Shown here: positions 5,697 through 64,000 of the stretch, in pieces
How the letters are laid out: each line of letters opens with the position of its first letter
Position numbering within the stretch: position 1 is the first letter of the stretch
From: Thermoproteota archaeon
Lineage (GTDB): Archaea; Thermoproteota; Thermoprotei; Gearchaeales; Gearchaeaceae
Direction: 5' to 3'
Length of the DNA: 64,000 bases
Assembly: GCA_032249235.1 (NCBI GenBank)
Contig: JAVVGF010000002.1
Coordinates: 1-64,000, forward strand
Notes under the pieces: model-generated
Databases searched by the model: none
Seen by the model: only the letters and a program-made list of their open reading frames with translations
Told to the model about the DNA's origin: nothing
Translations under genes and position numbers: made by a program

Positions 5697-6233
5697 TCAA
5701 CGTTTTTTAGAATTTATAAGCTCTCTAGATATGAGATAATCGATAATTTGTTCAACACATTCATTAGGATTTAATTTATTAGTCTCGAGCACCAATTCAG
5801 CATTGTTAGATTCTTCATAAGGATCTTGGAGACCAGGAACCGTCGATGCTAAGCCTTTTTTAGCAGCTTCATATATTCCTTTCTTGTCTCTTTTCATGCA
5901 AGTTTCAATATCACACTTCAAATAAACTTCAATGAAATTTTTAATTTGAGATCGGGCTTCATCTCTATAGCGCTTTTTATTACCTGTAGCAGCAATTATA
6001 ACATTAACTCCATTATCAACAAGCAATTTTGCAATATAAACAAGAACACTATAAAACCAGTCTCTTTCTTCTAATGAATAGGTAGGTTTAGGAGTTAATA
6101 TTTTCCTCAGCTCATCCGAATCAAGAATTTGAACTGAAATTCCCATGTTTTGCAACGCATTCTTAAGTAGAGAAGCAATTGTAGATTTACCTGAAGCAGG
6201 TAAGCCAGTAAGCCAAATACAAAAAGATTTCAT
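5697..6233 (-). CDS. cysC: Adenylyl-sulfate kinase-like P-loop kinase
   Basis: IWLTGLPASGKST, LDSDELR, FIEVYLKC, RDKKGIY and QDPYE motifs. Confidence 0.75.
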   Translation of the reverse strand: MKSFCIWLTGLPASGKSTIASLLKNALQNMGISVQILDSDELRKILTPKPTYSLEERDWFYSVLVYIAKLLVDNGVNVIIAATGNKKRYRDEARSQIKNFIEVYLKCDIETCMKRDKKGIYEAAKKGLASTVPGLQDPYEESNNAELVLETNKLNPNECVEQIIDYLISRELINSKKR

Positions 6234-7306
6234 GAAAAGAGTGAATTCACAGACTTATAGTCGAAATGCTCACTCTCTAGAACATTGTTTATGAAATTGA
6301 AGAGAGCCTTTCTTGTTTCATATTTCAAATTAGGATACCAAATAGGACTCGCTATGACAAGAGCACGCCATGCATAAAACGGCTGCAGTACTCTTAATAT
6401 TTCTTCATCATTTGTTAACTTTAAATAATTTTCAAAAAATTTTTGATAAAGAAATTCAAAAGGACCTTCTAGTCTATTCCATCTTTGTAAAGAGAAGAAA
6501 ATATAATTTATCGTAAGAGCAGTTAAATCATCTGCAGGTTCTCCAAATTCTCCTCTGCTCCTATCATTTAAAACAAAATCAGCTTCATCAACAAAGAATA
6601 TGTTCCAAGGATGGAAGTCTCCATGAATTTGACTAGCTCTATGAATGAGCTTCTTCAATTTCCATCTCCATTCAATTAATCTTTTTTCTATTTTTATGAA
6701 AAAGTTTTCATCATAAAATTCACTCTTTGTAGGATAACTATCGATTAAGCCCATAATACATTCTCCATGACCTAGAAGTTCTCTTATTCTGCGAACGTAT
6801 ATTTCTTTATCCTCTGACTTGACTGAATGAATTTCAGCAAGATAATTAGATAGCGAAATACAACGCTTTATATCAAGCTCATTTAAAGAAGCTGTATCCC
6901 TTATTCTTTCTAAATCTAAATAATATAAATTACCTTTAATGAATTCAACTAAAATGAAGGGTTCGCTGAATTTCAAAAGAGGAAAGAGTTTGCCTTCTTC
7001 ATTAAAATAACCTAAAGCTAAAGCTCTTGCATGCTTAGGCAACTTATTATAAGATTCATAAGCCAAAATAAGAGAATGAAATCTATCAGCTCTATATTCA
7101 TGACCAAATCTATCAGCCCGCATAGTTTCAAGAACTGCTTTATTCAATTCTTTTTCAACTTGAAAAGTTATGATTATGGGCATGCCATAGCCGTAGCCTT
7201 TTAAAGATCCTTCTTTTATTTCTATTCCTTCTACGCTAACTAACTTAACGTCTTTATGAAATATTTCTTTTAAGAATTCTTCGATAAATTCTAATTTTAC
7301 ATTCAT
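6230..7306 (-). CDS. APH/choline-kinase-family phosphotransferase
   Basis: Brenner motif HGDFHPWN followed by DRSRGEFGEPADD. Overlaps the cysC start by 4 nt. Confidence 0.8.
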   Translation of the reverse strand: MNVKLEFIEEFLKEIFHKDVKLVSVEGIEIKEGSLKGYGYGMPIIITFQVEKELNKAVLETMRADRFGHEYRADRFHSLILAYESYNKLPKHARALALGYFNEEGKLFPLLKFSEPFILVEFIKGNLYYLDLERIRDTASLNELDIKRCISLSNYLAEIHSVKSEDKEIYVRRIRELLGHGECIMGLIDSYPTKSEFYDENFFIKIEKRLIEWRWKLKKLIHRASQIHGDFHPWNIFFVDEADFVLNDRSRGEFGEPADDLTALTINYIFFSLQRWNRLEGPFEFLYQKFFENYLKLTNDEEILRVLQPFYAWRALVIASPIWYPNLKYETRKALFNFINNVLESEHFDYKSVNSLFS

Positions 7307-8619: not shown

Positions 8620-9651
8620 TTAAGGAATTGTTGCTCTCCTTATTGCTTCAACAATTTCTTCTTCATCTATTCCATAAAGTTCAACTTTTCCTACTTTTAT
8701 GTATCTCTTAACATATTCTTCGATATATGATTCATCAGCAGGTGCAAACTTAAGACCAGCTTCGAGAGCTTCCAAGGCTTCTGGAGGATAAATGTAGAAA
8801 TCACCTGATATGTGTATATTCATTATCAAGCCACGATCGGTTGAAGCTAAAACAGTTATGAAACCTGTCTTTGTATCGATAGTTACAGCTTTAACATCAG
8901 AGGAAGCATTGATATTCTTATTTCTATATTCATAAATCCATTCGCTCATGGTATGTTTTTCTATATGAGATTTTAATAACATGGCTTCATAATCTGTGAG
9001 TCTTTGATTTGTAAAGCTAATTCCAAGTTCTCTCTTCATCACAGACTTTATAGTCTCTATGAAAGTTGAGGGAGAGTATTCTTGACCTAATTCATATTTT
9101 AAACTTGTGAAATAAGAAGGGGTAGCATAAGGTAAAGAATTAATCGTTAAAACTCGCTTTCTATATTCTTCATCATTATCAACGTTAAAATAGAATGTTA
9201 TGCCTAAAGCATGATTTATTCTAAATACATCTACATATGCAAGCATTCTCTTATTGACATAAAGACTGTATGGTTCTTCATAAGAAGCATTAATATTGAG
9301 CTCTCTTAAAGCATTTATCATGATATCTATTATTTTTCTCTTCATACTATCAGAAGTAGGTCTATTATCTTTTAAGAAAAATTGCACTGCCATTTGCTTA
9401 TCTGTGAAGAATAGAATAGGGCCGCTTGTAGGTCTTCTACCTATATTGAATTTCAGAGCCCTTATTTCTTGGATGTTTATTACTTTCTGAGGTATATGCT
9501 GAATACCTAATATCACAGAACTAGGATTACAATAAGCGATCCTCAAAGTATTGCTTGCTCTTTCATTTCCTACACTTCTTAAAAGAACTTCACTTACAGC
9601 TAAATTATATGCTACATCACCTATTTCATTCATAAAACGCCAATAACTCAT
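8620..9651 (-). CDS. Lipoate-protein ligase A family protein (degenerate motifs) with C-terminal LplA domain
   Basis: NLAVSEVLL, RRPTSG and a C-terminal HISGDFYIYP. The GGGAV.HD and GRKISG motifs are degenerate. Confidence 0.75.
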   Translation of the reverse strand: MSYWRFMNEIGDVAYNLAVSEVLLRSVGNERASNTLRIAYCNPSSVILGIQHIPQKVINIQEIRALKFNIGRRPTSGPILFFTDKQMAVQFFLKDNRPTSDSMKRKIIDIMINALRELNINASYEEPYSLYVNKRMLAYVDVFRINHALGITFYFNVDNDEEYRKRVLTINSLPYATPSYFTSLKYELGQEYSPSTFIETIKSVMKRELGISFTNQRLTDYEAMLLKSHIEKHTMSEWIYEYRNKNINASSDVKAVTIDTKTGFITVLASTDRGLIMNIHISGDFYIYPPEALEALEAGLKFAPADESYIEEYVKRYIKVGKVELYGIDEEEIVEAIRRATIP

Positions 9652-10579: not shown

Positions 10580-11521
10580 ATGATAAGAAAAGTTCAAAAA
10601 ATAGGTAATTCATATTACATAGCATTACCTTCGAAATGGATTAAGGAATATAGCATAAACAAAGGAACTGAACTTAAGCTAGAAATGAAAGAAGATGGGA
10701 AGCTAGTTGTATCACCTATTATAGAAGAAAGTTTAGAAGAAAAAGAAGTAACGTTGAATTACGATAAAAACACAATAGAAAAGAAAATACTGAGCTATTA
10801 TCTCATAGGATATAACATAATTAAAATCGTAAATGAAGAAGGATTCAAAACTGAAGAAAGGGATGATATAATTAAAATATCAAGGAAGTTAAGCGGATTG
10901 GAAATTGTGGATGAAAGAAGAGATCTGATAACTTTACAAAACTTAATAGATGAATCTTCGATAAATCCTATCAAGTTATTATTTAGAATGAGCGCAATAA
11001 CTTCTACAATGTATGTTGATGCGATAAAAGAAGCCTTTAACAAAGGAGAAATTTTAGAAATTGTTTATAAGAGAGATGAAGAAGTCGATAGGTTATATTT
11101 TCTACTAGTCAGACAACTTAGGACATTGATATTGAGGCCACATTTGCTAAGTAAGCTTGAATTGACATTGTTAGATTGTTTAGATTTGAGAATAGCTGCG
11201 CATTTCATAGAGAAGATAGGAGACGAAGCTGCGAGATTAGCAGAAATTCTAGGTTTAAATAACGAAAAAATTAAAGCTCAATTTTTAAAGAATTTACTTG
11301 ATGTAGCGTCTAATTTACAAATTCTTCAAGAAAAAAGCCTAGTATATTTCGTTAGGAAAAAAGGAAATGTTGAAGAAATAAAATCAGAACTTCTTAAATT
11401 AAAAGATGAATTAACTCAGCTTAGCGAAAATTCGAGTTATCACGAAATAATTATATTGAATATATTAAAAGAAATAATTGATTTCAACGTAGATATTTGT
11501 GATTTAATAATGTATCCTTAA
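10580..11521 (+). CDS. AbrB-PhoU family phosphate uptake regulator
   Basis: RKVQKIGNSYYIALPSKW AbrB domain, plus RDEEVDRLY and EKIGD PhoU motifs. Confidence 0.85.
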   Translation: MIRKVQKIGNSYYIALPSKWIKEYSINKGTELKLEMKEDGKLVVSPIIEESLEEKEVTLNYDKNTIEKKILSYYLIGYNIIKIVNEEGFKTEERDDIIKISRKLSGLEIVDERRDLITLQNLIDESSINPIKLLFRMSAITSTMYVDAIKEAFNKGEILEIVYKRDEEVDRLYFLLVRQLRTLILRPHLLSKLELTLLDCLDLRIAAHFIEKIGDEAARLAEILGLNNEKIKAQFLKNLLDVASNLQILQEKSLVYFVRKKGNVEEIKSELLKLKDELTQLSENSSYHEIIILNILKEIIDFNVDICDLIMYP

Positions 11522-12957
11522 AAAAGGATTTTCTGATAATAGAAGTATGAAGGAAAGAAAGTCAATAACAATAGTGCAATTATAGATATTATCATAATAA
11601 TATCAGTCTCTAAAGTTTTATTAGTTTTAAGCGAAGAATTTGTTTCAGAAATAACTTCAAGCCTTATTAAATATGCATAATAATACACAGAGATGCCGCT
11701 CATTATCAATGCTACCAAGGCTAGATAAACACCTAGTATGCTACTAAAAGCCACATTCAGGAATAGTAAAAATTTAGCCATGAATCCAGCAAAAGGAGGT
11801 ATTCCTGCTAAAGATAATAGTGCTACGGTAAAGGTTGTTGCAGCTAAGGGATCTATTCTGAAGAGTGATAACAACTTATCGTAAGGACTTTCACTACCTT
11901 CACCAGTAATACGATTTGCGACTAAGAAACTTATAGCTTTTGCAATGCTATAAGTCAGAACATAGAATCCTAAAAGAGGTAGGGTTTCTGAAGGAAATAC
12001 AAAGACTAATGCCATATATCCTGCATGTGCTACAGAAGAATAAGCTAAAAGCCGCTTAATATTCCTTTGAACTAATGCTATGATGTTAGGCACTACCATT
12101 GTAATTAAGGCAAGAAATGCCAAGATGTACCTAAACCAAGGTTCTAGGTAGAATATTGGTTTAAAAGCTGTGCTTAATAACAAAGCAATAGCTATTATCC
12201 CTGTTAATTTTGCAGTCGATGACAAGTATGCTGCTATGCTTGTAGGAGAACCTTGATATGCATCGATTGCCCAAACATGCAATGGGACCAATGTTGATTT
12301 TATTCCTAGAGAAGCGATTATTAATAAAATACCTAGTATTACAAAAGATTTTTCAGAACCTAACAAGCCGTTTTCAAAAAAGCTATATAAAGAAATGAAT
12401 GAAGTGCCTCCAGCGATTCCATAAATTATTGCTAATCCATATGCAAAGAACAAAGTAGATAATACTCCGAATATGAAAAATTTCACAGTTGCTTCAAGCG
12501 AAAAATAATCTCTCTTGAATTGTGCTACTAAAACATATGCAGGAAAAACGCTGGCCTCTACAGCTAAGAAAAGTAAAATGAGATCTCTTGTCGATACTGC
12601 GATAAGCGAAGCAGCCAACGATAATAAAAGCAGTGGCTGGGCTTCTCTTTTGAGAAGTTCCTCACTCAATGCTGAAAGCGATATGATAGCGCCAACGATT
12701 AAAGCTATCCATGAAACTATAGAGAAATTATCTACGCTTATTAAATTATTGAAGAATAAAACTTCAACATTTCTAGATAAGAAATAGAAAGATAAAGAAA
12801 GTGAAAATAGCATGAAAATATAGGATAATGTTTTCGCAAGCATAATTTTCTTGACAAGTGTTATAAGAGCTACGACTATTGCTCCAAATAGAAGAATGAT
12901 AATGGGAGAAAAATAATAAGCGAAGCTATAAAGATCTTGATCTATGATTAGCGGCAT
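11518..12957 (-). CDS. nuoN: Complex I-like subunit N
   Basis: EATVKFF, KSTLVPLHVWAIDAYQG, KRLLAYSS and SLAGIPP motifs. Confidence 0.92.
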   Translation of the reverse strand: MPLIIDQDLYSFAYYFSPIIILLFGAIVVALITLVKKIMLAKTLSYIFMLFSLSLSFYFLSRNVEVLFFNNLISVDNFSIVSWIALIVGAIISLSALSEELLKREAQPLLLLSLAASLIAVSTRDLILLFLAVEASVFPAYVLVAQFKRDYFSLEATVKFFIFGVLSTLFFAYGLAIIYGIAGGTSFISLYSFFENGLLGSEKSFVILGILLIIASLGIKSTLVPLHVWAIDAYQGSPTSIAAYLSSTAKLTGIIAIALLLSTAFKPIFYLEPWFRYILAFLALITMVVPNIIALVQRNIKRLLAYSSVAHAGYMALVFVFPSETLPLLGFYVLTYSIAKAISFLVANRITGEGSESPYDKLLSLFRIDPLAATTFTVALLSLAGIPPFAGFMAKFLLFLNVAFSSILGVYLALVALIMSGISVYYYAYLIRLEVISETNSSLKTNKTLETDIIMIISIIALLLLTFFPSYFYYQKILF

Positions 12958-12958
12958 G

Positions 12959-13267
12959 TTATTTTGCTTCTTCCTCTTTTAGTTTTCTAATCTCAAGAAT
13001 ATCAACACTTCCATATGTTCTATCCATTTCTATAGCGATTGCTAAGCCTAATGCAGCTTCTAAAGCGATAATTATAATAACTAATACGCCCAAAACTTCA
13101 CCTAAAGAACCTTTTACAGTTGCCAATGTACCAATGCTTAATATCACTGCACTCATTGCAATTTCTATAGATATTATTATTCTTATAAGATGTCTTCTTG
13201 CAAGAATACCGTATATTCCTATAAGTAATAAAGGAAGTACTGCAATTAAAGCTATTATCGCATTCAT
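12959..13267 (-). CDS. nuoK: Complex I-like subunit K
   Basis: IGIYG, ISIE and ALEAALGLAI motifs. Confidence 0.9.
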   Translation of the reverse strand: MNAIIALIAVLPLLLIGIYGILARRHLIRIIISIEIAMSAVILSIGTLATVKGSLGEVLGVLVIIIIALEAALGLAIAIEMDRTYGSVDILEIRKLKEEEAK

Positions 13268-13758
13268 TTTTCTTCGCTAGCAACGTAAATTGCTCCTAAA
13301 TAAATTGCTAATGCAGCCAATGATAGAATGAATAAAGCAATACCATAGTCATTGAATAACAATTTTATTATTAGAGAAAGATTCGATGAAAAAGATGTAT
13401 AAAAATCGCTTTTGGAGATTAATATCAACGAAGCGATTAGTACTACTATTAACAAAGCGTTTATGAAAGCTACTCTAGATAGTTCTTTAGTAGGAGGAAT
13501 ATCTATAGTAGGTCTTGTTAGCATCGCTGCGAATATTATTAATACTAATACACCTCCTGCATTCACAAAAAGATAGATTAAAGCTAAAAACCATGCACCT
13601 ATTTGAATTAGAGCCCATGCACTTGCAACATACATTCCAACTAAAAATACAGCTGAATATAGTATGTCTCTTGTTTTTATTGCAAGATATGAAAAGAACG
13701 TAGCCCATGCAATCGCTACAAGATAAAGCAAAGCATTGTTATCGATCATTAAATCCAT
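13264..13758 (-). CDS. nuoJ: Complex I-like subunit J
   Basis: YLFVNAGGVLVLIIFAAML and five TM helices. The start is probably ATG 13758. Confidence 0.88.
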   Translation of the reverse strand: MDLMIDNNALLYLVAIAWATFFSYLAIKTRDILYSAVFLVGMYVASAWALIQIGAWFLALIYLFVNAGGVLVLIIFAAMLTRPTIDIPPTKELSRVAFINALLIVVLIASLILISKSDFYTSFSSNLSLIIKLLFNDYGIALFILSLAALAIYLGAIYVASEEK

Positions 13759-13844
13759 TGTCGCATATATCACAATTCGCCGATTTATATTTTTATTGCC
13801 AAAGCTTAACAAATTTTATATTCAACTTATAACACTGTTATATT

Positions 13845-14708
13845 ATGTCAGAGGAAAAGTTTAAAGAATATGCACATCCTGATGTTCTAGTAAGCACAGA
13901 ATGGGTAAATACACACCTTAATGATCCAAGCATAAGAATTGTTGAAGTAGACTATGATCCAATAGCAAACTATTATGAAGGACACATTCCTGGTGCAGTT
14001 CTATTTGATTGGAAAAAAGACATGAATCATCCTGTTATAAGAGATATTTTAACTAAAGAACAACTTGAAGACTTGTTATCGAGAAATGGAATATCCAATG
14101 AAACTACAATAATACTTTATGGTGACTATAATAATTGGTTTGCTGCTTTTGCATTCTGGATACTAAAATACTATGGTGTTGAAAAGGTAAAATTGATGGA
14201 TGGAGGTAGAAAGAAATGGATCTTAGAAGGAAGACCGCTCACAAAAGAAATACCTAAATATCCTAGAGCAGTGTTTAAAGCTAAAGAACCTGATGAAACG
14301 ATAAGGGTATACATGGATTATGTTAGAGCAATATTGAAGATGAAAGATCATGTACTTGTAGATGTTAGAAGCCCTAAGGAATATACAGGTGAAATCCTTG
14401 CACCTCCTGAATATCCTGAAGAAAAAGCACAAAGAGGAGGCCATATTCCTGGTGCTATTAATATACCTTGGTCTTTAGCTGTTAGAGAAGAAGACGGTAC
14501 ATTTAAACCGAGAAAAGAATTAGAAGAAATATACAGAAGTAGAGGAATAACACCTGATAAGGAAATTGTCACTTATTGCAGAATAGGTGAAAGAGCATCT
14601 GTTACATGGTTTGTATTGAAATATCTCCTAGGTTATCCGCATGTAAAGAATTACGATGGATCTTGGACTGAATGGGGAAGTATAATTAAAAATCCAATCG
14701 AAAAATAA
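13845..14708 (+). CDS. Tandem-domain rhodanese / thiosulfate sulfurtransferase (CysA/SseA type)
   Basis: GHIPGA twice, active-site loop YCRIGERAS and YDGSWTEWG. Confidence 0.93.
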   Translation: MSEEKFKEYAHPDVLVSTEWVNTHLNDPSIRIVEVDYDPIANYYEGHIPGAVLFDWKKDMNHPVIRDILTKEQLEDLLSRNGISNETTIILYGDYNNWFAAFAFWILKYYGVEKVKLMDGGRKKWILEGRPLTKEIPKYPRAVFKAKEPDETIRVYMDYVRAILKMKDHVLVDVRSPKEYTGEILAPPEYPEEKAQRGGHIPGAINIPWSLAVREEDGTFKPRKELEEIYRSRGITPDKEIVTYCRIGERASVTWFVLKYLLGYPHVKNYDGSWTEWGSIIKNPIEK

Positions 14709-15365
14709 TCACTTTATTTTTTTAGCTATTAAATGATATAAATTTCCTTCTTTTTTGTACTCAACAAATTTTTGTCCAGTTTGTTCTTGCCATCTCATCA
14801 TTTCTATGGGTGCAGTAGGATCATCTGAAACAATATGAACAACTGTTCCTATTTCTGAATTAGAGAAGAGCTCGTTTAATTTAGCCAATACCAAAGAGCA
14901 TTCAACGCCTATTTCAAAAAACTCATAATCTGGATATTCAGAAAAACACTTGATTTTATAATCGCTTATTTTCCTCCATATTTCTTCTTTCAATTCATTA
15001 ATATTTTTATAAGAGATTCGAATTGTTGATTCAAGAGGTTTTAGTTTAGCGATCCATCCTTTGCCATAAGGATCTTTATTTAACAGTATTGGTTTAGTTA
15101 ACAAATCTTTATTCACTTCTAACAATTCACATTTAAAAGGTGCACGAATAACATCGAATCTCCTAACGGCTTCCAAAGAACAAATTATAGAATTAAATTC
15201 AAGTATCTTGCTTTCGAAAAAACGAACATTAATAAATTTTCCAGAAAACCAAGCTAGAAAAGAATTTATTCCTATTAGGAAGCCCCCATTATCATTTCTT
15301 AGCCAAGTATTATTATCTAAATTATACAGTAAGTCTTCAGGAAATATGCATCCCTCAATATTCAT
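14709..15365 (-). CDS. GcvH/LbpA-like domain fused to TusA/SirA sulfur-carrier domain
   Basis: The N-part has GCIFPEDLLY...W...IGI...E...RAP...EVN...LLNKDPYGKGWIAKL (H-protein fold). The C-part has GVECS...VSDDPTAPIEMMRW (TusA fold). Confidence 0.8.
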   Translation of the reverse strand: MNIEGCIFPEDLLYNLDNNTWLRNDNGGFLIGINSFLAWFSGKFINVRFFESKILEFNSIICSLEAVRRFDVIRAPFKCELLEVNKDLLTKPILLNKDPYGKGWIAKLKPLESTIRISYKNINELKEEIWRKISDYKIKCFSEYPDYEFFEIGVECSLVLAKLNELFSNSEIGTVVHIVSDDPTAPIEMMRWQEQTGQKFVEYKKEGNLYHLIAKKIK

Positions 15366-15802
15366 CTGTATTCTAATTCTTGAACACGTGTTACTTTCTT
15401 TTGATCTAGATACAAGTCTTCCCTCTTAAAGCCAACTATGCTCACTACGTGCGTATGATAAATTGCTTGTGGAGGACAATAATCTACACACAAACCGCAA
15501 TACATGCAATGTTGTAGATCAATTTCAGGTATCATTGCAGGCTTTCCCTTTTCATATGGAACCATGAAGATACACGTATTAGGACATACTTTTGCACATA
15601 TACCACAACCTATACATAACTCATCGTCAACTTCTAAGGCTCCTCTAAATCTTTCTGGGAATATTATCGTTTTAGTAGGATATTCAATCGTCGGACGTTT
15701 GAAGAATACATACTTTGATACGGTGAAAAACGCTATTAAAGGTCCTAGAATTGTTTTCTTTAATTTTTCTTTGAATGTTTGTTTAGGATACACCTCAATC
15801 AT
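15362..15802 (-). CDS. nuoI: Complex I-like subunit I (2x[4Fe-4S])
   Basis: TIEYP...RFRG, CIGCGICAKVCP and CMYCGLCVDYCP motifs. Confidence 0.93.
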   Translation of the reverse strand: MIEVYPKQTFKEKLKKTILGPLIAFFTVSKYVFFKRPTIEYPTKTIIFPERFRGALEVDDELCIGCGICAKVCPNTCIFMVPYEKGKPAMIPEIDLQHCMYCGLCVDYCPPQAIYHTHVVSIVGFKREDLYLDQKKVTRVQELEYR

Positions 15803-15829
15803 TCTTCTATCAACGTCGATATAAACTTA

Positions 15830-16939
15830 TTAGCTCATGAATCCAATGCTAACAAGATAATACTTAAGAACAATTACTATTAATAAGTTGGCAATCGATA
15901 AAGGTAGAAGTTTCGTCCAGCTAAGATTTAATAACTGATCTATTCTATAACGTGGAAAAGCTGCTCTTATCAGTATGTACAGAACCATGAAGAAATAGGT
16001 TTTTATCATTAGCCATAAAGGCCCGCTCATCGGCGCCAATATACCTGGAAGTGTTGGGCCTAACCAGCCTCCAAAAAAGAAAATAGCTAGTAAGGTTGCG
16101 CTTACGAATGCTCTCACATACATGCCCATAATTAAAAGTAAGAATGGAGAAGCACTATATTCTGTATTCCAACCAGCAATTATTTCGGATTCTGCATCAG
16201 GTATATCAAAAGGAGTCCTTTCTGCTTCAGCAATAGCTGTAATTAAAAATAATATGAAAGTAAGAGGTGCTAGGAATATTAACCACATATTCTTTTGCCT
16301 TTCTACTATTTCATAAAGATTAAGCGTTCCTGTTAGCACTACAACAGCAGCTACAGATAGTAAGAAAGGAATTTCAAAGCTCAAAAGCTGTGCAGCAGCT
16401 CTAAAGCCTCCGATTACGCTGTATTTATTATTACTAATCCAACCAGTAAGCAAAATGAAAATGGGATTAAAGCTAAGTATTACGAATATTAATAGAACAC
16501 CTACTTGAAAATATTGAGATACAATTGCATATTTAAACAATCCAAACCAACTTATGAATGGTTCGAAAATAAGCAAAGTATTCGCAACTACATAATCATA
16601 AGGCATTATAATTATTAAGAGCAAAGAAACACCAGTAATAAAAACAGGCATCGAGAGAAAAGCTATTCTGTTCGCTTTTGCAGGTACAATTATTTCTTTA
16701 TTCAATACTTTCACGAAATCTGCTATGAGCTGCAAAATTCCCCATTTTCCAACATATGTGGGCCCCATGCGTTGCATAGTTCTTGCCCAGACCTTTCTTT
16801 CAACATAAATGAAAATTAAAGCGTTTATTAGAATGAATATTATAGCAAGTATCATAGCTACGATAACTCTTAAAGCGTCGATGAGCAAAGGATAAGATTT
16901 TAAAAAAGTTATTATGCTATCTATCATTTTATCGATCAA
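15830..16939 (-). CDS. nuoH: Complex I-like subunit H
   Basis: ERKVWA.MQR.GP, SNNKYS, RTPFDIPDAESE and PRYRIDQ motifs. Confidence 0.95.
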   Translation of the reverse strand: MIDKMIDSIITFLKSYPLLIDALRVIVAMILAIIFILINALIFIYVERKVWARTMQRMGPTYVGKWGILQLIADFVKVLNKEIIVPAKANRIAFLSMPVFITGVSLLLIIIMPYDYVVANTLLIFEPFISWFGLFKYAIVSQYFQVGVLLIFVILSFNPIFILLTGWISNNKYSVIGGFRAAAQLLSFEIPFLLSVAAVVVLTGTLNLYEIVERQKNMWLIFLAPLTFILFLITAIAEAERTPFDIPDAESEIIAGWNTEYSASPFLLLIMGMYVRAFVSATLLAIFFFGGWLGPTLPGILAPMSGPLWLMIKTYFFMVLYILIRAAFPRYRIDQLLNLSWTKLLPLSIANLLIVIVLKYYLVSIGFMS

Positions 16940-18047
16940 TTTCTCCTAAACATGGATCGAAAGAACCAAGAATTGCATATAGATCGGCTATTTTTGAGCC
17001 TTTCATTACATTAGGTAAACTCATTACATGAACATATGCAGGGCTTCTTATTTTAACTCTATATGGCTTAGGCGATCCATCGCTTACAATCATGTAACCA
17101 CATTCTCCTCTTGAATCTTCAACATATCCATAGCCTATACCTGGTGGAGGATAAAGAAGAGCTCTATGTTGGTAAGGACCAGATGGCAATCTTTTCAATG
17201 CTTGTCTAACAATATTGATGCTTTGCTTTATTTCTTCTAATCTTACATATACCCTATCAAAAGTATCACCTTTCTTACCTACAGGTATTTCGAAATCAAT
17301 AGCTTCATATGCAGCATAAGGTTCATCTCTCCTTAAATCTCTTTTTACACCACTCGCTCTTAGCATTGGTCCTGTCCAACCCAGCTCGATTGCTTTCGAT
17401 GCAGGTACAGGGCAAATATCAACAGTTCTTGCAAGAAAAACAGGATTTTCATAAATTAATTTCTCATAATCTTTCAGATTTCTTTCAACATAATTAAGAG
17501 CTTTTTCTGCATAATCATTGAAGCCAGTAGGCAAATCATACCTCACACCGCCAACTCTAAAATAACCGAAAGTCATTCTTTGACCGCTCATCATTTCCAA
17601 TAGATCTAGAATTCTGTCTCTATCTCTTAAACCCCATGGAAATGCGGTAAATAAACCTACATCTGCAACGAATGCAGAGAACCAAACTAAATGGCTTGCA
17701 ATCCTTGTAAGTTCGCATGCTATTACTCTTAACCATTCAGCTCTTTCAGGTACTTTCGCATCCATTATTTCTTCAACAGCTTTGACGAAACCATATTCCC
17801 AAAACATTCCGCTTACATAACAAAGTCTATTCAGATAAATCGGTATCTGGAAGTAATTTCTGAGCTCGCATAGTTTCTCTATTCCTCTATGAATATAACC
17901 TAGTTTTACATCTACATCGATGATTGTTTCTCCTTCAACAGTTATTATTAAATCCATTGGACCATGCGTTGAAGGATGTTGAGGGCCTACGTTAATGACT
18001 AATTTCCTTACTTCTCTGCCTACAGTTTTTTCTTGCATACTCACCAT
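16929..18047 (-). CDS. nuoD: Complex I-like subunit D
   Basis: GPQHPSTHG, GYIHRGIEK, RLCY and a terminal GEIDR. No NiFe CxxC pairs. The start is probably 18047 or 18038. Confidence 0.95.
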   Translation of the reverse strand: MVSMQEKTVGREVRKLVINVGPQHPSTHGPMDLIITVEGETIIDVDVKLGYIHRGIEKLCELRNYFQIPIYLNRLCYVSGMFWEYGFVKAVEEIMDAKVPERAEWLRVIACELTRIASHLVWFSAFVADVGLFTAFPWGLRDRDRILDLLEMMSGQRMTFGYFRVGGVRYDLPTGFNDYAEKALNYVERNLKDYEKLIYENPVFLARTVDICPVPASKAIELGWTGPMLRASGVKRDLRRDEPYAAYEAIDFEIPVGKKGDTFDRVYVRLEEIKQSINIVRQALKRLPSGPYQHRALLYPPPGIGYGYVEDSRGECGYMIVSDGSPKPYRVKIRSPAYVHVMSLPNVMKGSKIADLYAILGSFDPCLGEIDR

Positions 18048-18475
18048 TTGTAATCTTTTCTCAAAGGATATCCAATCCAATGATCAGGTAATAAAATCCT
18101 TCTTAGATCAGGATTACCTTCAAAATAAACTCCCATAAGATCGAAGGTTTCTCTTTCATGGAAATGAGCTCCTTCCCAAACTGGAACGAGTGAAGGTATT
18201 CTTGGATCATTTCTATCGATAAGCGTGCCTACTATTACAAGACCGTTAGCTTCTAACTTTCTGCAAATGAACATTACTTCAATTGAATTCAACCTATCTA
18301 CAGCTGTTACAGCAGAAAGTAAGACAAAACCTGCTTCTTTCAATTTCTTCGCAGATTCCAACCATTTATCTTTAGGTATCTTAGCATAGTATTTGTTCTT
18401 GTATATTTTGTATAGCTCAGCATATGGTAAAATCTCTTTCAATTTTTTCTCTAAATCTTGACTCATACTCTCCAA
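18041..18475 (-). CDS. nuoC: Complex I-like subunit C
   Basis: ERETFDLMGVYFEGNPDLRRILLP...GYPLRKDY. Confidence 0.95.
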   Translation of the reverse strand: MESMSQDLEKKLKEILPYAELYKIYKNKYYAKIPKDKWLESAKKLKEAGFVLLSAVTAVDRLNSIEVMFICRKLEANGLVIVGTLIDRNDPRIPSLVPVWEGAHFHERETFDLMGVYFEGNPDLRRILLPDHWIGYPLRKDYKW

Positions 18476-19011
18476 TCTTCCTTTACTATAGGATAACCTT
18501 CCTTAGGCAAAAATTTCCTTCTTATTTCTCCTTTCATTATTTTCTCCTCTAATTTTATAATTGCTTCGATCAAAGCTTCTGGTCTTGGAGGACATCCTGG
18601 AACATAAACATCTACAGGTATCACTTGGTCAACACCATCGACGATGCTATACATTCCTTTCCAAGGTCCTCCGCATATAGAGCATTCTCCATATGATATC
18701 ACATATCTTGGCTCAGCCATTTGCTCATATAAAGTCTTAACTACTGGTGCAAGCTTATGAGATATAGGACCTGTAATTATTAATAAATCACATTGTCTTG
18801 GGCTATTTCTTGGTAAAACACCAAATCTTTCAAAATCATAATTAGAAGCGCCTGCAACCATTAAACCTTCAATTGTACAGCATTTTATTCCAAATACCAA
18901 AAGCCAAAGTGAATTCCTTCTTCCCCATATGAGCAATTTATCTACAAAAGGTAGCTTTTTAGGATCTACAATCCATATCTTGAAATCTTGCCAAATATCG
19001 AGTAATCTCAT
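18463..19011 (-). CDS. nuoB: Complex I-like subunit B
   Basis: KCCTIE, SPRQCD, GECSICGG and PGCPPRPE motifs. The start is probably ATG 19011. Confidence 0.95.
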   Translation of the reverse strand: MRLLDIWQDFKIWIVDPKKLPFVDKLLIWGRRNSLWLLVFGIKCCTIEGLMVAGASNYDFERFGVLPRNSPRQCDLLIITGPISHKLAPVVKTLYEQMAEPRYVISYGECSICGGPWKGMYSIVDGVDQVIPVDVYVPGCPPRPEALIEAIIKLEEKIMKGEIRRKFLPKEGYPIVKEDWRV

Positions 19012-19048
19012 GAGCTTAATAGAATAGTGCAACTTCTGTTATTTATAC

Positions 19049-19408
19049 TTAGACCCATTTTAGCATTTTCTTCTTCAAAGTATAAATAACGCTAAAGATG
19101 GTTACTAATAGGAGCGATATCATGCCTATTAAACCTATCAAGCTCAATTGTATCGATTCAATAGCCCAAATTAGTGTTAAAATAGCAATTATGTCAGCTA
19201 CAAGATATGCTATACCATAAATGTAATATTGAACATTCATTCTTACCTGAGCTTCTCCTAATAGTTCTTCTCCACATTCATATGTTGAAAGCTTGATCTC
19301 CGATTTGCTCGGCTTATGGGTTAATTTATAGTTTAGATATATTACTAGAATTGCAAATGTTAAAGATATTATCAGAGCAATAGCAAGGGCAATGAAATCT
19401 AGCATCAT
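19049..19408 (-). CDS. nuoA: Complex I-like subunit A
   Basis: KLSTYECGE, three TM helices and a terminal LKWV. The start is ATG 19408, because the track extension overlaps frdA. Confidence 0.9.
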   Translation of the reverse strand: MMLDFIALAIALIISLTFAILVIYLNYKLTHKPSKSEIKLSTYECGEELLGEAQVRMNVQYYIYGIAYLVADIIAILTLIWAIESIQLSLIGLIGMISLLLVTIFSVIYTLKKKMLKWV

Positions 19409-19461
19409 GATTTCTTCAATTATCAGGTTAATATTCTTTAACCTCTGCGTTATATTAGTTT

Positions 19462-21162
19462 GTGGATAAGATAAGAGCTGACGTAATAGTGATAGGAGCT
19501 GGAGCTGCAGGATTGAGAGCCGCAATAGAAGCTGCAAGCATTGATTCTAAATTGAGAATAGCACTGATTTCAAAGGTATATCCTATGAGAAGTCATACAG
19601 TTTCTGCAGAAGGAGGTGCCGCTGCTGTAATAAAAGAATATGATAATTTTGATTCGCATGCTTATGATACAATTAAAGGTAGTGATTTCCTAGCAGATCA
19701 AGATGCTGTTGAGTTATTCGTCAGACTAGCTCCTCAAGAACTTTTGAATTTAGAGAAATGGGGTCTTCCATGGGCAAGAGATGAAAATGGAAGGATGGCT
19801 GCAAGGGCATTTGGAGGTATGTCTGTTAAAAGAACATTCTTTGCTGCAGACAAAACAGGATTTTACATTCTTCACACTCTATTTCAAAGATCTCTGATGT
19901 ATGATAATATTGAAAGATATGATGAATGGTTCGTTACTTCTTTAATTGTTGAAAAAGGAAGATTTAAAGGATTGACTGCAATAGATATAAAAAACGGCAC
20001 ACTACATTACTTTGAAGGTAAGGCTGCAATAATATGCACAGGAGGTATTGGACAACTTTATAAGACGACATCTAACGGTGCAATAAATACTGGTGATGGT
20101 ATGGCTCTTGCTTATAGAGTAGGCGCGCCGCTAAAAGATATGGAATTTGTTCAATTCCATCCAACAGGTCTTCCTGGAAAAGGTTTTTTAATAACTGAAG
20201 CTGCAAGAGGTGAAGGAGGATATCTTTTGAACAACAAATATGAAAGATTCATGAAAAAATATGCACCTGAAAAACTGGAACTTGCAGCAAGAGATGTGGT
20301 TTCAAGGGCTATATATTACGAGATAAAAGAAGGAAGAGGTTTTGAAGGAAAATATGGAGCTTATGTCGGACTTGATATTAGACATTTAGGAAAAGAAGTC
20401 ATAGAGAAGAAATTACCTACAGTTAAGGAGATGGCTGAAAAATATGCAGGAGTTGATCCATACAATGAATTGATACCTGTAAGACCTACAATGCATTACA
20501 TGATGGGAGGAGTTCATACAAATAAGAATGCAGAAACTCCAATAGCAGGATTGTATGCTGCAGGTGAAGCTGCATGTGTTAGCATAAATGGAGCAAATAG
20601 ATTGGGATCAAATTCCTTAACAGAATGTCTTGTTTTCGGGGCAATAGCTGGAAGAAACGCAGCTAACTTTGCATTAAGACACGATTATGTCGAAGTAAAT
20701 AAAGAGGAAGTATTGAATGAAGAAAAAAGAATATTTGAAGGATTGCTTAAAAAAGAAAACGGTATACCTGCTTCAGAGATAATTTTTGAATTGAAAGACA
20801 CAATGGAGGAAAAAGTAGGAATAATTAGAAATGGAAAAGAACTTGAAGAAGCTTTCGCAAACATAATGAAGCTAAAGGAAAAGTTCAAGCAAGTAAGCGT
20901 TTTGGACAAAAGCAAAATCTACAATACTGATTTTATACAAGTTTTGGAATTAGATTTCATGCTAGATGTTGCAGAAGCCATAACTTATTCAGCTTTGAAA
21001 AGAAAGGAATCTAGAGGAGCGCATTATAGAATTGATTATCCTAAAAGAGATGATGAACATTTCTTAGCACATCAATTGATCTATAAGACAGAATATGAAC
21101 CGAGAATAGAACTTTTACCTGTTGTAATAACTAGATGGCAACCTATAGAAAGGAAGTATTGA
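19462..21162 (+). CDS. frdA: Fumarate reductase/succinate dehydrogenase flavoprotein
   Basis: GAGAAG, RSHTVSAEGG (covalent FAD His), QFHPT, TEAARGEGG, HYMMGG and GANRLGSNSL motifs. Confidence 0.93.
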   Translation: MDKIRADVIVIGAGAAGLRAAIEAASIDSKLRIALISKVYPMRSHTVSAEGGAAAVIKEYDNFDSHAYDTIKGSDFLADQDAVELFVRLAPQELLNLEKWGLPWARDENGRMAARAFGGMSVKRTFFAADKTGFYILHTLFQRSLMYDNIERYDEWFVTSLIVEKGRFKGLTAIDIKNGTLHYFEGKAAIICTGGIGQLYKTTSNGAINTGDGMALAYRVGAPLKDMEFVQFHPTGLPGKGFLITEAARGEGGYLLNNKYERFMKKYAPEKLELAARDVVSRAIYYEIKEGRGFEGKYGAYVGLDIRHLGKEVIEKKLPTVKEMAEKYAGVDPYNELIPVRPTMHYMMGGVHTNKNAETPIAGLYAAGEAACVSINGANRLGSNSLTECLVFGAIAGRNAANFALRHDYVEVNKEEVLNEEKRIFEGLLKKENGIPASEIIFELKDTMEEKVGIIRNGKELEEAFANIMKLKEKFKQVSVLDKSKIYNTDFIQVLELDFMLDVAEAITYSALKRKESRGAHYRIDYPKRDDEHFLAHQLIYKTEYEPRIELLPVVITRWQPIERKY

Positions 21163-63806: not shown

Positions 63807-63880
63807 TTCGATTATTAATTTAAAGAAGCTTATTTTTAAACTTTTAGTCAGACTTAAATTTATTGAAGAAGTAATAAGTG

Positions 63881-64000
63881 ATGGTGGCTGTTCCTAAATT
63901 GATGCCTGATGAAATCATTTCAAGAGCAGTATATCCTATGATAAGAGCAATGATTGCTAAGCGCCTTGTTGAGAGATATCATTTTAATCAAAAAGAAGTC
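63881..64000 (+). CDS. HTH transcriptional regulator (COG2522-like; truncated by window end)
   Basis: MVAVPKLMPDEIISRAVYPMIRAMIAKRLVERYHFNQKEV fits the P.E....P.IRA.IA..L.....Q.E pattern that precedes an HTH. Confidence 0.65.
   Translation, partial: MVAVPKLMPDEIISRAVYPMIRAMIAKRLVERYHFNQKEV

Follow-up and report, generated by a model that had tools for sequence, protein, structure and literature searches.

An H-protein-fold/TusA fusion and its rhodanese partner in an archaeal complex I operon: a candidate cysteine-based sulfur relay

Results

The window, that is, the whole 64,000-nucleotide stretch of archaeal DNA that was analysed, contains a gene for a 218-aa protein joining an H-protein fold to a TusA fold (14709..15365, minus strand) and a gene for a 287-aa tandem-domain rhodanese (13845..14708, plus strand). 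The stop codons of these two genes, hereafter the cassette, are contiguous, with zero gap, at 14708/14709. Directly 5' of the fusion gene lies nuoI (15362-15802, minus strand), whose stop overlaps the fusion start by 4 nt (ATGA). nuoI belongs to the host operon nuoA-B-C-D-H-I (15362..19537, minus strand; the ends are ORF ends, and the true nuoA start is probably later than the listed ORF end), and nuoJ-K-N (11518..13758, minus strand) is separated from it by the cassette, giving the order nuoA-B-C-D-H-I, cassette, nuoJ-K-N. The junction overlap and the tail-to-tail rhodanese splitting nuoABCDHI from nuoJKN were thus as described in the original prediction. The nuoD, H, I and N genes are NCBIfam matches, several of them under the cut-offs, and nuoJ is a Pfam match; the putative labels of nuoA, B, C and K were read from gene order and motifs. 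As had also been predicted for the NuoEFG input module, NuoF (PF01512) was not found in this genome, which is 91% complete; nuoL/M-like genes lie on a different contig.

An AT-rich, TATA-like element (13783..13793, minus strand) precedes the probable start of nuoJ (13758) by 25-35 nt. It was invariant in 5/5 aligned intergenic regions and is possibly a separate nuoJKN promoter. A sigma-70 promoter scan, a model unsuited to archaea, remained at chance level. In one metatranscriptome, available as contigs only and containing 0.32 of the words, one contig over 15268-15784 spanned the nuoI-fusion junction and a second covered 14157-14682. Because these contigs show neither strand, single transcript nor level, nothing was concluded from them.

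The predicted composition of the fusion was borne out by domain searches and modelling. The Pfam GCV_H domain matched residues 14-112 (E 1.9e-16), and the Pfam TusA domain matched residues 153-216 (E 7.3e-6), slightly missing its cut-off (26.2 bits; cut-off 28.6). An AlphaFold model with a pLDDT of 90.9 resembled H-proteins (1DXM, Z 18.6) and, over residues 141-217, chain residues 4-80 of E. coli TusA (3LVJ_C, Z 12.8, rmsd 1.9). The layout is an LbpA-like H-fold at about residues 1-140 and a TusA fold at 141-218. By this superposition, Cys156 (GVECS; 14898..14900, minus strand) falls on TusA Cys19, the persulfide-site position at the start of helix 1. Since E65-A-V-R68 of the fusion aligned with E-S-V-K of solved H-proteins, the lipoyl lysine is replaced by Arg68 (15162..15164, minus strand). 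Cys6 (GCIFP; 15348..15350, minus strand) and Cys140 (KIKC; 14946..14948, minus strand) correspond to the N- and C-terminal cysteines of the LbpA-type pair, and Cys6 aligned with GCQIP of this genome's sHdr-linked LbpA. No flavin- or Fe-S-binding Pfam domain was found in the fusion. Unlike GcvH, the fusion has no lipoyl lysine and scored below the NCBIfam gcvH cut-off (46 bits versus 115.85); a true GcvH is encoded separately in this genome.

Conservation was counted in 134 full-length fusion homologues. Cys6 was cysteine in 132/134 (2 gaps), Cys140 in 133/134, as well as at 30/30 genome and 80/80 metagenome loci, and Cys156 in all 134. The lipoyl site was occupied by Arg in 83, Lys in 40, Thr in 6, Met in 2, Val and Ser in 1 each and a gap in 1; stand-alone H-proteins retain the lipoyl lysine in 64/72 cases. 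This comparison showed that the three cysteines are near-invariant and that the lipoyl lysine is dispensable for the family. The predicted loss of this lysine therefore holds for the present protein but not family-wide, while the predicted retention of the three cysteines extends to nearly all homologues. The CPxP motif of TusA is mostly replaced by C-S/A-A-V in fusion members (CSLV here); proline followed the TusA-site cysteine in 5/29 divergent representatives, and CPGP was present in P0142 and P0159. Two single-contig, 99%-complete genomes, G353 and G377, had the fusion as their sole H-fold match and no match to the LplA/B family (PF21948).

According to the available text of PMC6067878 (Cao et al. 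2018), the lipoyl lysine of LbpA, the lipoate-binding protein of the sHdr system for sulfur oxidation, is strictly conserved, and cysteines lie near the N- and C-terminus of the domain. The fusion shares with LbpA the H-protein fold and the cysteines at both domain ends, and is 29% identical to this genome's sHdr-linked LbpA. It differs in the predominance of Arg at the lipoyl site, in the attached TusA domain and in its location outside shdr clusters. Likewise, the C-terminal part resembles E. coli and sHdr-associated TusA in fold and in the cysteine, but differs in the attached H-fold, the loss of CPxP in most members and the slightly subthreshold Pfam score.

The fusion was found in 35/401 genomes, and its carriers occurred in records labelled Nitrososphaerota, Nitrosocaldus, Bathyarchaeia and Methanomassiliicoccales, with sHdr mostly missing. 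It was not found described in a literature search whose scope excluded most subscription journals and the bioRxiv supplements (HMSS2/sHdr tables).

The partner protein consists of two rhodanese domains with a C-terminal CRIGER motif of the CRxGxR type. The catalytic Cys245 (14577-14579) lies within this motif, which was invariant in 28/28 sequences. The protein matched 1UAR from T. thermophilus (E 3e-109) and 3HWI (3e-97) over the full length. We take 1UAR to be TtuD, and the type presumably bears the names TtuD and CysA/SseA. The rhodanese is an ordinary member of the 1UAR/mycobacterial thiosulfate sulfurtransferase type, and what is special about it is the partner gene and the upstream box described below.

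The rhodanese gene adjoined the fusion gene at 25/30 genome and 64/80 metagenome loci and stayed next to it in two distinct gene arrangements. Of the 35 fusion genomes, 33 had the rhodanese at E<=1e-80, and in the other two the copy adjoining the fusion was broken. The rhodanese was commoner than the fusion (102/401 versus 35/401 genomes). By this comparison, rhodanese and fusion travel together. In f29 genomes (G086 and G223), a same-type rhodanese with a small Cys protein adjoined genes for sulfite reductase and siroheme methylase; G223 additionally has PAPS reductase there. The small protein beside the rhodanese in f3, f4 and f29 was only weakly TusA-like (Pfam E 0.0019, 1/4), and comparison with the fusion TusA domain gave an hhalign probability of 0.7% (E 0.084) and an hmmsearch E of 0.0013 (1/4). 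The f29 sulfite reductase, siroheme methylase and PAPS-reductase fragment had no tblastn match in the 91%-complete genome studied here.

The association with complex I was weak. nuo genes flanked the fusion at 2/30 genome and 2/80 metagenome loci, all in close relatives. Within the genus, the insertion with its overlapping nuoI-fusion junction was kept in 4/4 genomes, and the fusion was 60-67% identical, versus 79-92% for nuoB, C, D, H and I. In sister genera this nuo cluster lacks the cassette, which stood instead beside tes; nuoI and nuoJ abut in one of these genera, and the present genome has an empty tes site. Contiguous nuoI and nuoJ were observed in G404, G274 and G382, and the fusion also occurred in genomes with this arrangement; the family does not require nuoI coupling. 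In G405 nuoI was inverted, so the junction is unstable. Comparison of filled and empty sites showed that, in the ancestor of the genus, the cassette moved from the tes side to between nuoI and nuoJ. It is best read as a mobile pair of sulfur-relay genes and not as part of complex I. Such filled and empty sites illustrate that translational coupling within an operon may have arisen recently and does not by itself make a protein a subunit.

A lysine-less ligase-like gene at 8620-9651 was considered as a partner and rejected: it occupies the same locus in sister genera with the cassette elsewhere, and its family is missing from G353 and G377.

Other sulfur systems were compared among the carriers. 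sHdrB was found in 4/35 fusion genomes, and Hdr, DsrE and Lpl_C4 had no match in 110 fusion flanks. An sHdr-type role is consequently unlikely and was rejected as the general function, although contig C4 of this genome carries an sHdr-LbpA cluster at a separate site. SufS exceeded its cut-off in 34/35 fusion genomes, so the pair was also rejected as a cysteine desulfurase replacement; SufU is present in this genome. Fe-S enzymes among the neighbours included Tes, an Elp3-like radical SAM/GNAT protein (18 loci) and NuoI, besides the sulfite reductase beside the f29 rhodanese. Many neighbours were tRNA or translation genes (EndA, TiaS, EF-2 and GatE), and the 30 annotated neighbour families included no thiouridylase or ubiquitin-like carrier.

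The palindrome TATAAC-N3-GTTATA (13828..13842, unstranded) is located 2 nt before the rhodanese ATG. A box of the consensus TATAAC-N3/4-GTTATA, with <=1 mismatch, preceded 24/80 rhodaneses, a box-bearing set that is partly close kin, versus 3/165 control ORFs and 5/1680 shuffles; the other 56/80 upstream regions had no such box. In this genome it occurred in 14/1386 upstream regions. Exact sites numbered 45 across the order, against 16 when the pattern was reversed, and the most frequent targets were sufC and the rhodanese: the box preceded sufC in 9/12 genomes, the rhodanese in 8/12 and FTR1-type permeases in 5/12. In distant families it was located before sufB (G353, G114, G285, G309 and G090), feoB (G090 and G387) and a NirA/Sir-family gene (G353). 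The box stands at operator position before rhodanese, sufC/sufB and iron-uptake genes more often than expected by chance, and the palindrome is a candidate operator common to these genes.

The exact box was absent from 18/40 more distant genomes, and the box with <=1 mismatch from four regions near sufS, just one of which included the sufB upstream region. It was found upstream of none of 103 fusions at <=1 mismatch; therefore, in convergent loci, including this one, regulation would reach the rhodanese only. Further sites lay before thiamine-type genes, namely two ECF S-components in this genome, an HTH gene with a ThiN domain (G403) and an NCS1 permease (G315), and also before numerous PhnD-like binding proteins and before OsmC and DsrE genes. 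Because of the thiamine-type, PhnD-like, OsmC and DsrE targets, several paralogous HTH regulators may share the box. A candidate HTH protein with a C-x2-H...C-x2-C motif is encoded divergently from sufC in G274 and G382, but its N-terminal domain is shared by a paralogue fused to ThiN. In the window, the HTH protein is encoded from 63878 onward. No comparison motif was found in the available text of PMC10746257 or in a search on SufR.

Discussion

The pair is best explained as a sulfur relay that works through cysteines alone and is regulated together with SUF Fe-S assembly, a reading that draws on comparative sequence data and whose chance is put somewhat below even. Its lipoate independence, already part of the original prediction, gained support from the fixed cysteines beside a drifting lysine, from the two genomes without LplA/B and from the constant rhodanese neighbour. 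The control site that the rhodanese gene has in common with Fe-S assembly genes suggests Fe-S sulfur supply, not respiratory electrons; of the uses originally proposed, Fe-S or cofactor sulfur supply was thus strengthened by the box shared with sufC and sufB. In this relay, rhodanese Cys245 would take sulfane sulfur from thiosulfate, polysulfide or SufS persulfide and hand it to Cys156 of the TusA domain. Cys6 and Cys140 would serve as a protein-borne dithiol replacing dihydrolipoamide, which would hold the sulfur or free sulfide. The sulfur would then enter SUF-dependent Fe-S cluster building or repair once the box is released by an HTH repressor that senses Fe-S or iron. Available parts of the literature describe uptake of sulfane sulfur from rhodanese by dihydrolipoate in vitro (PMC6067878) and an LbpA Cys pair modelled within disulfide distance and dispensable for lipoylation or ligase recognition (10.64898/2026.10.01.755906). 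Against the SUF-linked relay, SufS is encoded in most carriers and SufU in this genome, so that a second sulfur route would be unnecessary in principle. The lysine kept in 40/134 fusions, the wider spread of the rhodanese, the many tRNA or translation neighbours, the additional targets of the box and its lack before fusions and 56/80 rhodaneses also weigh against it.

Sulfur could also be relayed from SufS to tRNA thiolation or thio-cofactors (thiouridine, molybdopterin or thiamine), with the rhodanese in the part of Thermus TtuD and the TusA domain in that of its E. coli namesake. According to the available text of PMC6225789, TtuD and Tum1 stimulate cysteine desulfurases and channel sulfur towards s2U, and TusA accepts persulfide from IscS. 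The T. thermophilus origin of the closest solved rhodanese, the Elp3-like, EndA, TiaS and GatE neighbours, the near-universal SufS of the carriers and the box before thiamine-type genes agree with such a destination, but the neighbour families lack a thiouridylase or ubiquitin-like carrier and the box in the order most often precedes sufC and the rhodanese; this alternative is considered unlikely. Somewhat less likely still is sulfane-sulfur scavenging or thiosulfate use, in which the rhodanese strips sulfur from thiosulfate or polysulfide and its reduction by the dithiol yields sulfide, either for making cysteine or for detoxification. The sulfite reductase, siroheme methylase and PAPS reductase genes near the f29 rhodaneses and the box before the NirA/Sir-family, OsmC and DsrE genes would fit it; however, the present genome gave no match to those f29 genes, and the small f29/f3/f4 partner is only weakly TusA-like.

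Three near-invariant cysteines, a suf/iron box acting via the partner and Fe-S neighbours would also be expected of a carrier not of persulfide but of an Fe-S cluster or metal bound by these cysteines. Such a role is improbable, since Cys156 occupies the canonical TusA persulfide position (the available text of 10.1101/2023.12.18.572138 describes a CPxP motif with a persulfide-site cysteine) and Cys6 and Cys140 match the LbpA pair, modelled as a disulfide (available text of 10.64898/2026.10.01.755906). The least probable alternative, and a very doubtful one, is that the fusion is dedicated to the complex I lacking NuoEFG, which it would feed with sulfur-linked electrons or whose clusters it would load. 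The insertion and overlapping junction in all four genomes of the genus, the missing NuoF and the sHdr-LbpA cluster of this genome speak for it. The restriction of nuo flanks to a few loci of close relatives, the cassette-free nuo cluster of sister genera, the inverted nuoI of G405, the faster divergence of the fusion, its lack of a flavin- or Fe-S-binding domain and the absence of an sHdrB match from G310, which has the insertion, argue against it. A complex I without NuoEFG corresponds to an 11-subunit state described in the available text of PMC11238625. The present one is similar in having nuoABCDHIJKN here, nuoL/M-like genes elsewhere and no detected NuoF, and differs in its operon, which in one genus is interrupted by a translocated cassette; no finding marks the cassette as an input module. 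The original prediction tied the cassette to complex I and named placement unique to this genome as evidence to the contrary. Confinement to one genus, together with an origin by translocation, comes close to that case, and the tie is not supported.

Returning to the SUF-linked relay, translational coupling to nuoI would link fusion expression to the nuo transcript, and it may be tolerated or mildly useful because NuoI and NuoB need clusters. A more far-reaching version is speculative and rather unlikely: the fusion would be a built-in lipoate mimic that kept the Cys pair, dropped the lipoyl arm and added TusA, forming an archaeal rhodanese-to-SUF route that parallels SufS and is controlled by an undescribed HTH repressor sensing Fe-S, and the genus would have wired this carrier to NuoI translation for loading complex I clusters. 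If the lipoate-mimic reading were true, it would give the LbpA cysteines their first function. Because the lipoyl lysine drifts and the cysteines are fixed, their role is directly testable with one small soluble protein, and the fusion family may be regarded as a natural experiment on the two cysteines of LbpA. The box similarly allows assignment to a pathway, Fe-S supply, to be tested, and points to a candidate archaeal suf/iron regulator.

A single-protein scan of the genome collection, which returned no fusion contexts, was dominated by ordinary GcvH and sHdr-linked H-proteins. In a quick tree (107 rows, 143 columns, midpoint root), stand-alone Cys-pair proteins were placed next to the fusions.

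Gene layout and fold of the fusion protein

As originally predicted, the window contained open reading frames for a tandem rhodanese (13845-14708, + strand), for a protein joining an H-protein-fold domain to a TusA-fold domain (the fusion; 14709-15365, - strand) and for NuoI (15362-15802, - strand). The stop codons of the rhodanese and the fusion adjoined (gap of 0), and the nuoI stop and the fusion start overlapped by 4 nt. Pfam assigned a GCV_H domain to residues 14-112 of the fusion and, slightly below the cut-off, a TusA domain to residues 153-216. The AlphaFold model (pLDDT 90.9), which was built on a 34-row alignment, resembled H-proteins and E. coli TusA in structure comparison; its residues 141-217 matched residues 4-80 of the 3LVJ_C chain over 77 residues, and Cys156 fell on TusA Cys19. 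The lipoyl lysine position was occupied by Arg68, as expected for a site predicted to lack lysine. The rhodanese matched T. thermophilus 1UAR over its full length (E 3e-109).

Conservation of the cysteines and the lipoyl site

A homologue search returned 121 matches, and the first 111 listed were near full length. Their source-given names were Nitrososphaerales, Nitrosocaldus, Bathyarchaeia and one Methanomassiliicoccales record, and the Atlas clusters of the homologues were 96-100% archaeal. Conservation was counted in 134 full-length fusions. Cys6 was kept in 132 (two gaps), Cys140 in 133 and Cys156 in all of them, so that alignment with LbpA/GcvH bore out arginine at the lysine site together with three near-invariant cysteines. 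The lipoyl site held Arg in 83 sequences, Lys in 40, Thr in 6, Met in 2, and Val, Ser or a gap in one each. Thus, the proposed lysine loss held for the studied fusion and, as Arg, for 83 of the 134 sequences, but not for the 40 in which Lys persisted. Because the site varied in this way, whereas stand-alone H-proteins of the same search retained Lys in 64 of 72 cases, the usual constraint on this lysine is absent from the fusions. The members that still carry Lys (30%) could nevertheless be targets of modification.

In G353 and G377, two single-contig genomes that were 99% complete, the fusion was the sole GCV_H match and no LplA/B domain was found; the other three genomes searched alongside them had one such domain each. 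The studied genome encodes canonical LipA. A full-length lipoate-ligase-like protein was encoded at 8620-9651 (- strand), and this gene was kept in five genomes of the family next to an xerA-like gene, phoU and nuoN. The position of its catalytic lysine, which reads GKKI or GKKV in active lipoate ligases, was NKRM, or NGRM or NKKM; this protein is a probable pseudo-enzyme.

A quick tree was built from 107 H-domains, with few columns and no real root; a branch with SH-aLRT 96 set the 50 fusions apart from the other domains. Stand-alone proteins with the cysteine pair, including the sHdr-linked LbpA of the studied genome, adjoined this branch, and GcvH was furthest from it. PMC6067878 defines LbpA by a strict lysine and N- and C-terminal cysteines, and 10.64898/2026.10.01.755906 places the cysteine pair at disulfide distance in a model and describes it as not needed for lipoylation. 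The fusion is therefore LbpA-like, yet falls outside LbpA, since its lysine is not kept and its gene context differs. No paper on the fusion was found in the literature searched, which covered few subscription journals, and databases gave it domain names only. We conclude that the fusion is genuine and represents a so far unstudied variant among the known sulfur carriers.

Gene partners and the complex I setting

Of 401 genomes of the phylum, 59 matched the profile at E<=1e-30, and 35 of these did so over the full length; the 30 best genome loci were inspected with flanks of 1.5 kb, as were the 80 best among 457 metagenome loci. The expected co-occurrence with a rhodanese was found in 25 of these genome loci (same strand and upstream in 21, convergent in 4) and in 64 of the metagenome loci, all convergent and three more than 1 kb off; many of the 16 metagenome loci without it had short flanks. 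The parallel expectation for nuo genes failed: they lay beside the fusion in two of the best 30 genome loci (the studied genome and G310) and in two of the 80 best metagenome loci, from relatives 89% and 67% identical. Therefore, the partner of the fusion is the rhodanese, not nuo. In the loci L096, L113 and L236, G394 and G382 carried a broken or truncated rhodanese next to the fusion, and G404 had a second, more distant fusion copy.

The fusion lay directly behind nuoI in all four genomes of the genus, followed by the rhodanese and nuoJ wherever the contig extended. In the two sister genera (G394, G404, G405, G406), it lay beside a hyp-hyp-trmB block, and in G394, G404 and G406 the rhodanese and tes were on its other side. 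G404 had the same nuo cluster with nuoI abutting nuoJ directly, and nuoH-I-J-K-L was contiguous in G274 and G382, from the other family of the order. On contig C5 of the studied genome, tes directly adjoined hyp-hyp-trmB, leaving an empty site. The complex I setting of the rhodanese-fusion cassette is thus a genus-level rearrangement, a translocation that the filled and empty sites date to this genus, and the proposed tie to complex I was not supported by the comparison. The nuoI junction is unstable, because nuoI of sister-genus G405 (L244:8420-10625) had the opposite orientation to nuoH and nuoJ. Within the genus, copies of the fusion were 60-67% identical; the rhodanese reached 84-86%, and nuoB, C, D, H and I reached 79-92%. 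As the insertion has persisted and its junction still overlaps, the fusion is probably carried on the nuo transcript, and transcription of nuoJKN could start afresh at an invariant TATA-like element in front of nuoJ.

NuoF was not found in the studied genome (91% complete), and its nuoL/M-like genes were located on contig C1. Complex I enzymes that lack the NADH module have been described, and PMC11238625 proposes ferredoxin as their electron source. An APS-kinase-family gene overlapping a phosphotransferase-family gene was present at 5697-7306 (- strand); the sulfite reductase and PAPS-reductase queries used gave no match in this genome.

The predicted sulfur-oxidation context was recovered in part: the studied genome has a separate sHdr cluster on contig C4, which encodes TusA, two DsrE proteins, a ligase and an LbpA that retains its Lys, but sHdrB was found in only 4 of 35 fusion genomes. 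The C4 cluster (164658-173116; L090, L091) comprised radical SAM, TusA, ArsR, two DsrE, ligase, LbpA and HdrC/B/A-like genes, and occurred in some, not all, genomes of the family.

A palindrome shared with suf genes

A palindrome, TATAAC-N3/4-GTTATA (the box), stood directly before the rhodanese ATG in five of five aligned nuoJ-rhodanese gaps; G401 and G402 showed one mismatch as aligned, and a pattern search found an exact box at the same place in both. The studied genome had two exact TATAACA-N-TGTTATA sites, before the rhodanese and before sufC (none in 5 shuffles), and a one-mismatch TATAAC-N3-GTTATA before sufB in a sufC-B-D-Rieske-sufU cluster, where D, Rieske and U are putative labels. 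With up to one mismatch, the box was present in 24 of 80 distinct rhodanese upstream regions, usually no more than 20 nt from the start, as against 3 of 165 control ORFs and 5 of 1680 shuffles; it was absent at that threshold from 103 regions upstream of the fusion. Close kin among the sequences inflate these counts.

Across the 12 genomes of the order, 45 exact sites were found versus 16 for a reversed control. Targets were sufC (9 genomes), the rhodanese (8), FTR1-type permeases (5) and ZIP-like transporters (2), as well as genes for OsmC, DsrE and hemerythrin. Several of the sites lay within ORFs or before nothing nameable. The exact box also occurred in 22 of 40 more distant genomes, where it preceded sufB in five genomes, feoB in two, and an FTR1-like and a NirA/Sir-family gene in one each, with many sites before PhnD-like binding proteins; no such pattern was seen among the sites of f29 genomes and G377. 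Among the new findings, the suf-linked box offers the most useful lead. An HTH protein that bears a C-x2-H...C-x2-C motif, and is encoded divergently from sufC in G274 and G382, is a candidate for its regulator. However, a ThiN-fused paralogue shares its N-terminal domain and thiamine-type transporters also carry the box, which counts against a single iron regulon.

In the studied genome, the closest match of this HTH protein, which bears the motif too and is a candidate suf/iron regulator, began at window position 63878 (63878-64000, + strand, continuing to 64321 of contig C2), and a putative A-type Fe-S carrier-like gene lay 1.3 kb beyond it. In family f21 (L290, L294, L312, L314, L316, L318), a 245-aa HTH protein without a family match, putatively ferritin-like at its C-terminus, was divergent from PhnD-like/FTR1-like genes across the box.

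Possible role of the relay

Comparison of the sequences shows fixed cysteines, a free lysine, a constant rhodanese partner and a shared box, a combination consistent with a persulfide relay. In older in vitro work, Fe-S clusters were reportedly rebuilt by rhodanese, thiosulfate and dihydrolipoate. Persulfide transfer from rhodanese onto the CPxP cysteine of TusA is established in sulfur oxidisers (10.1101/2023.12.18.572138), and dihydrolipoate accepts rhodanese sulfane sulfur in vitro (PMC6067878). Because of these two reactions, Cys156 may be read as the persulfide site, joined to a Cys6/Cys140 protein dithiol that would do the former job of the lipoyl arm. SufS was present in 34 of 35 carriers, and the relay would therefore act beside or downstream of it.

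Supply or repair of Fe-S clusters is the role we tentatively favour, at slightly less than an even chance, since the box points to it, as do the Fe-S-rich neighbours (Tes, NuoI and an Elp3-like protein in 18 loci). Sulfur supply for thio-tRNA or cofactors would follow the analogy of TtuD and TusA, as presented in PMC6225789 and PMC6418473, and is unlikely, though the strongest competitor of Fe-S supply. Scavenging of sulfane sulfur is somewhat less likely again. It is improbable that the fusion carries a cluster or metal itself, and least probable that it is a dedicated complex I partner, a role suggested by the nuo junction of one genus and opposed by the hyp-hyp-trmB/tes setting of the sister genera.

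Rhodanese loci without the fusion

At E<=1e-80, the rhodanese was found in 33 of 35 fusion genomes and in 102 of all 401. Because it is so much more widespread than the fusion, it also works without the fusion.

Genomes of f12 and one of f59 (L210-L214, L225) have no fusion; in them, the same rhodanese type was followed by a 102-aa protein ending in TCPDD, with no Pfam family, and in L210-L214, less clearly in L225, also by a 316-aa ferredoxin-domain protein. In f3, f4 and f29 (L215-L217, L224), the rhodanese adjoined a weakly TusA-like protein of 82-92 aa with a conserved SC..G...P motif, and in f29 it lay beside sulfite reductase and siroheme genes.
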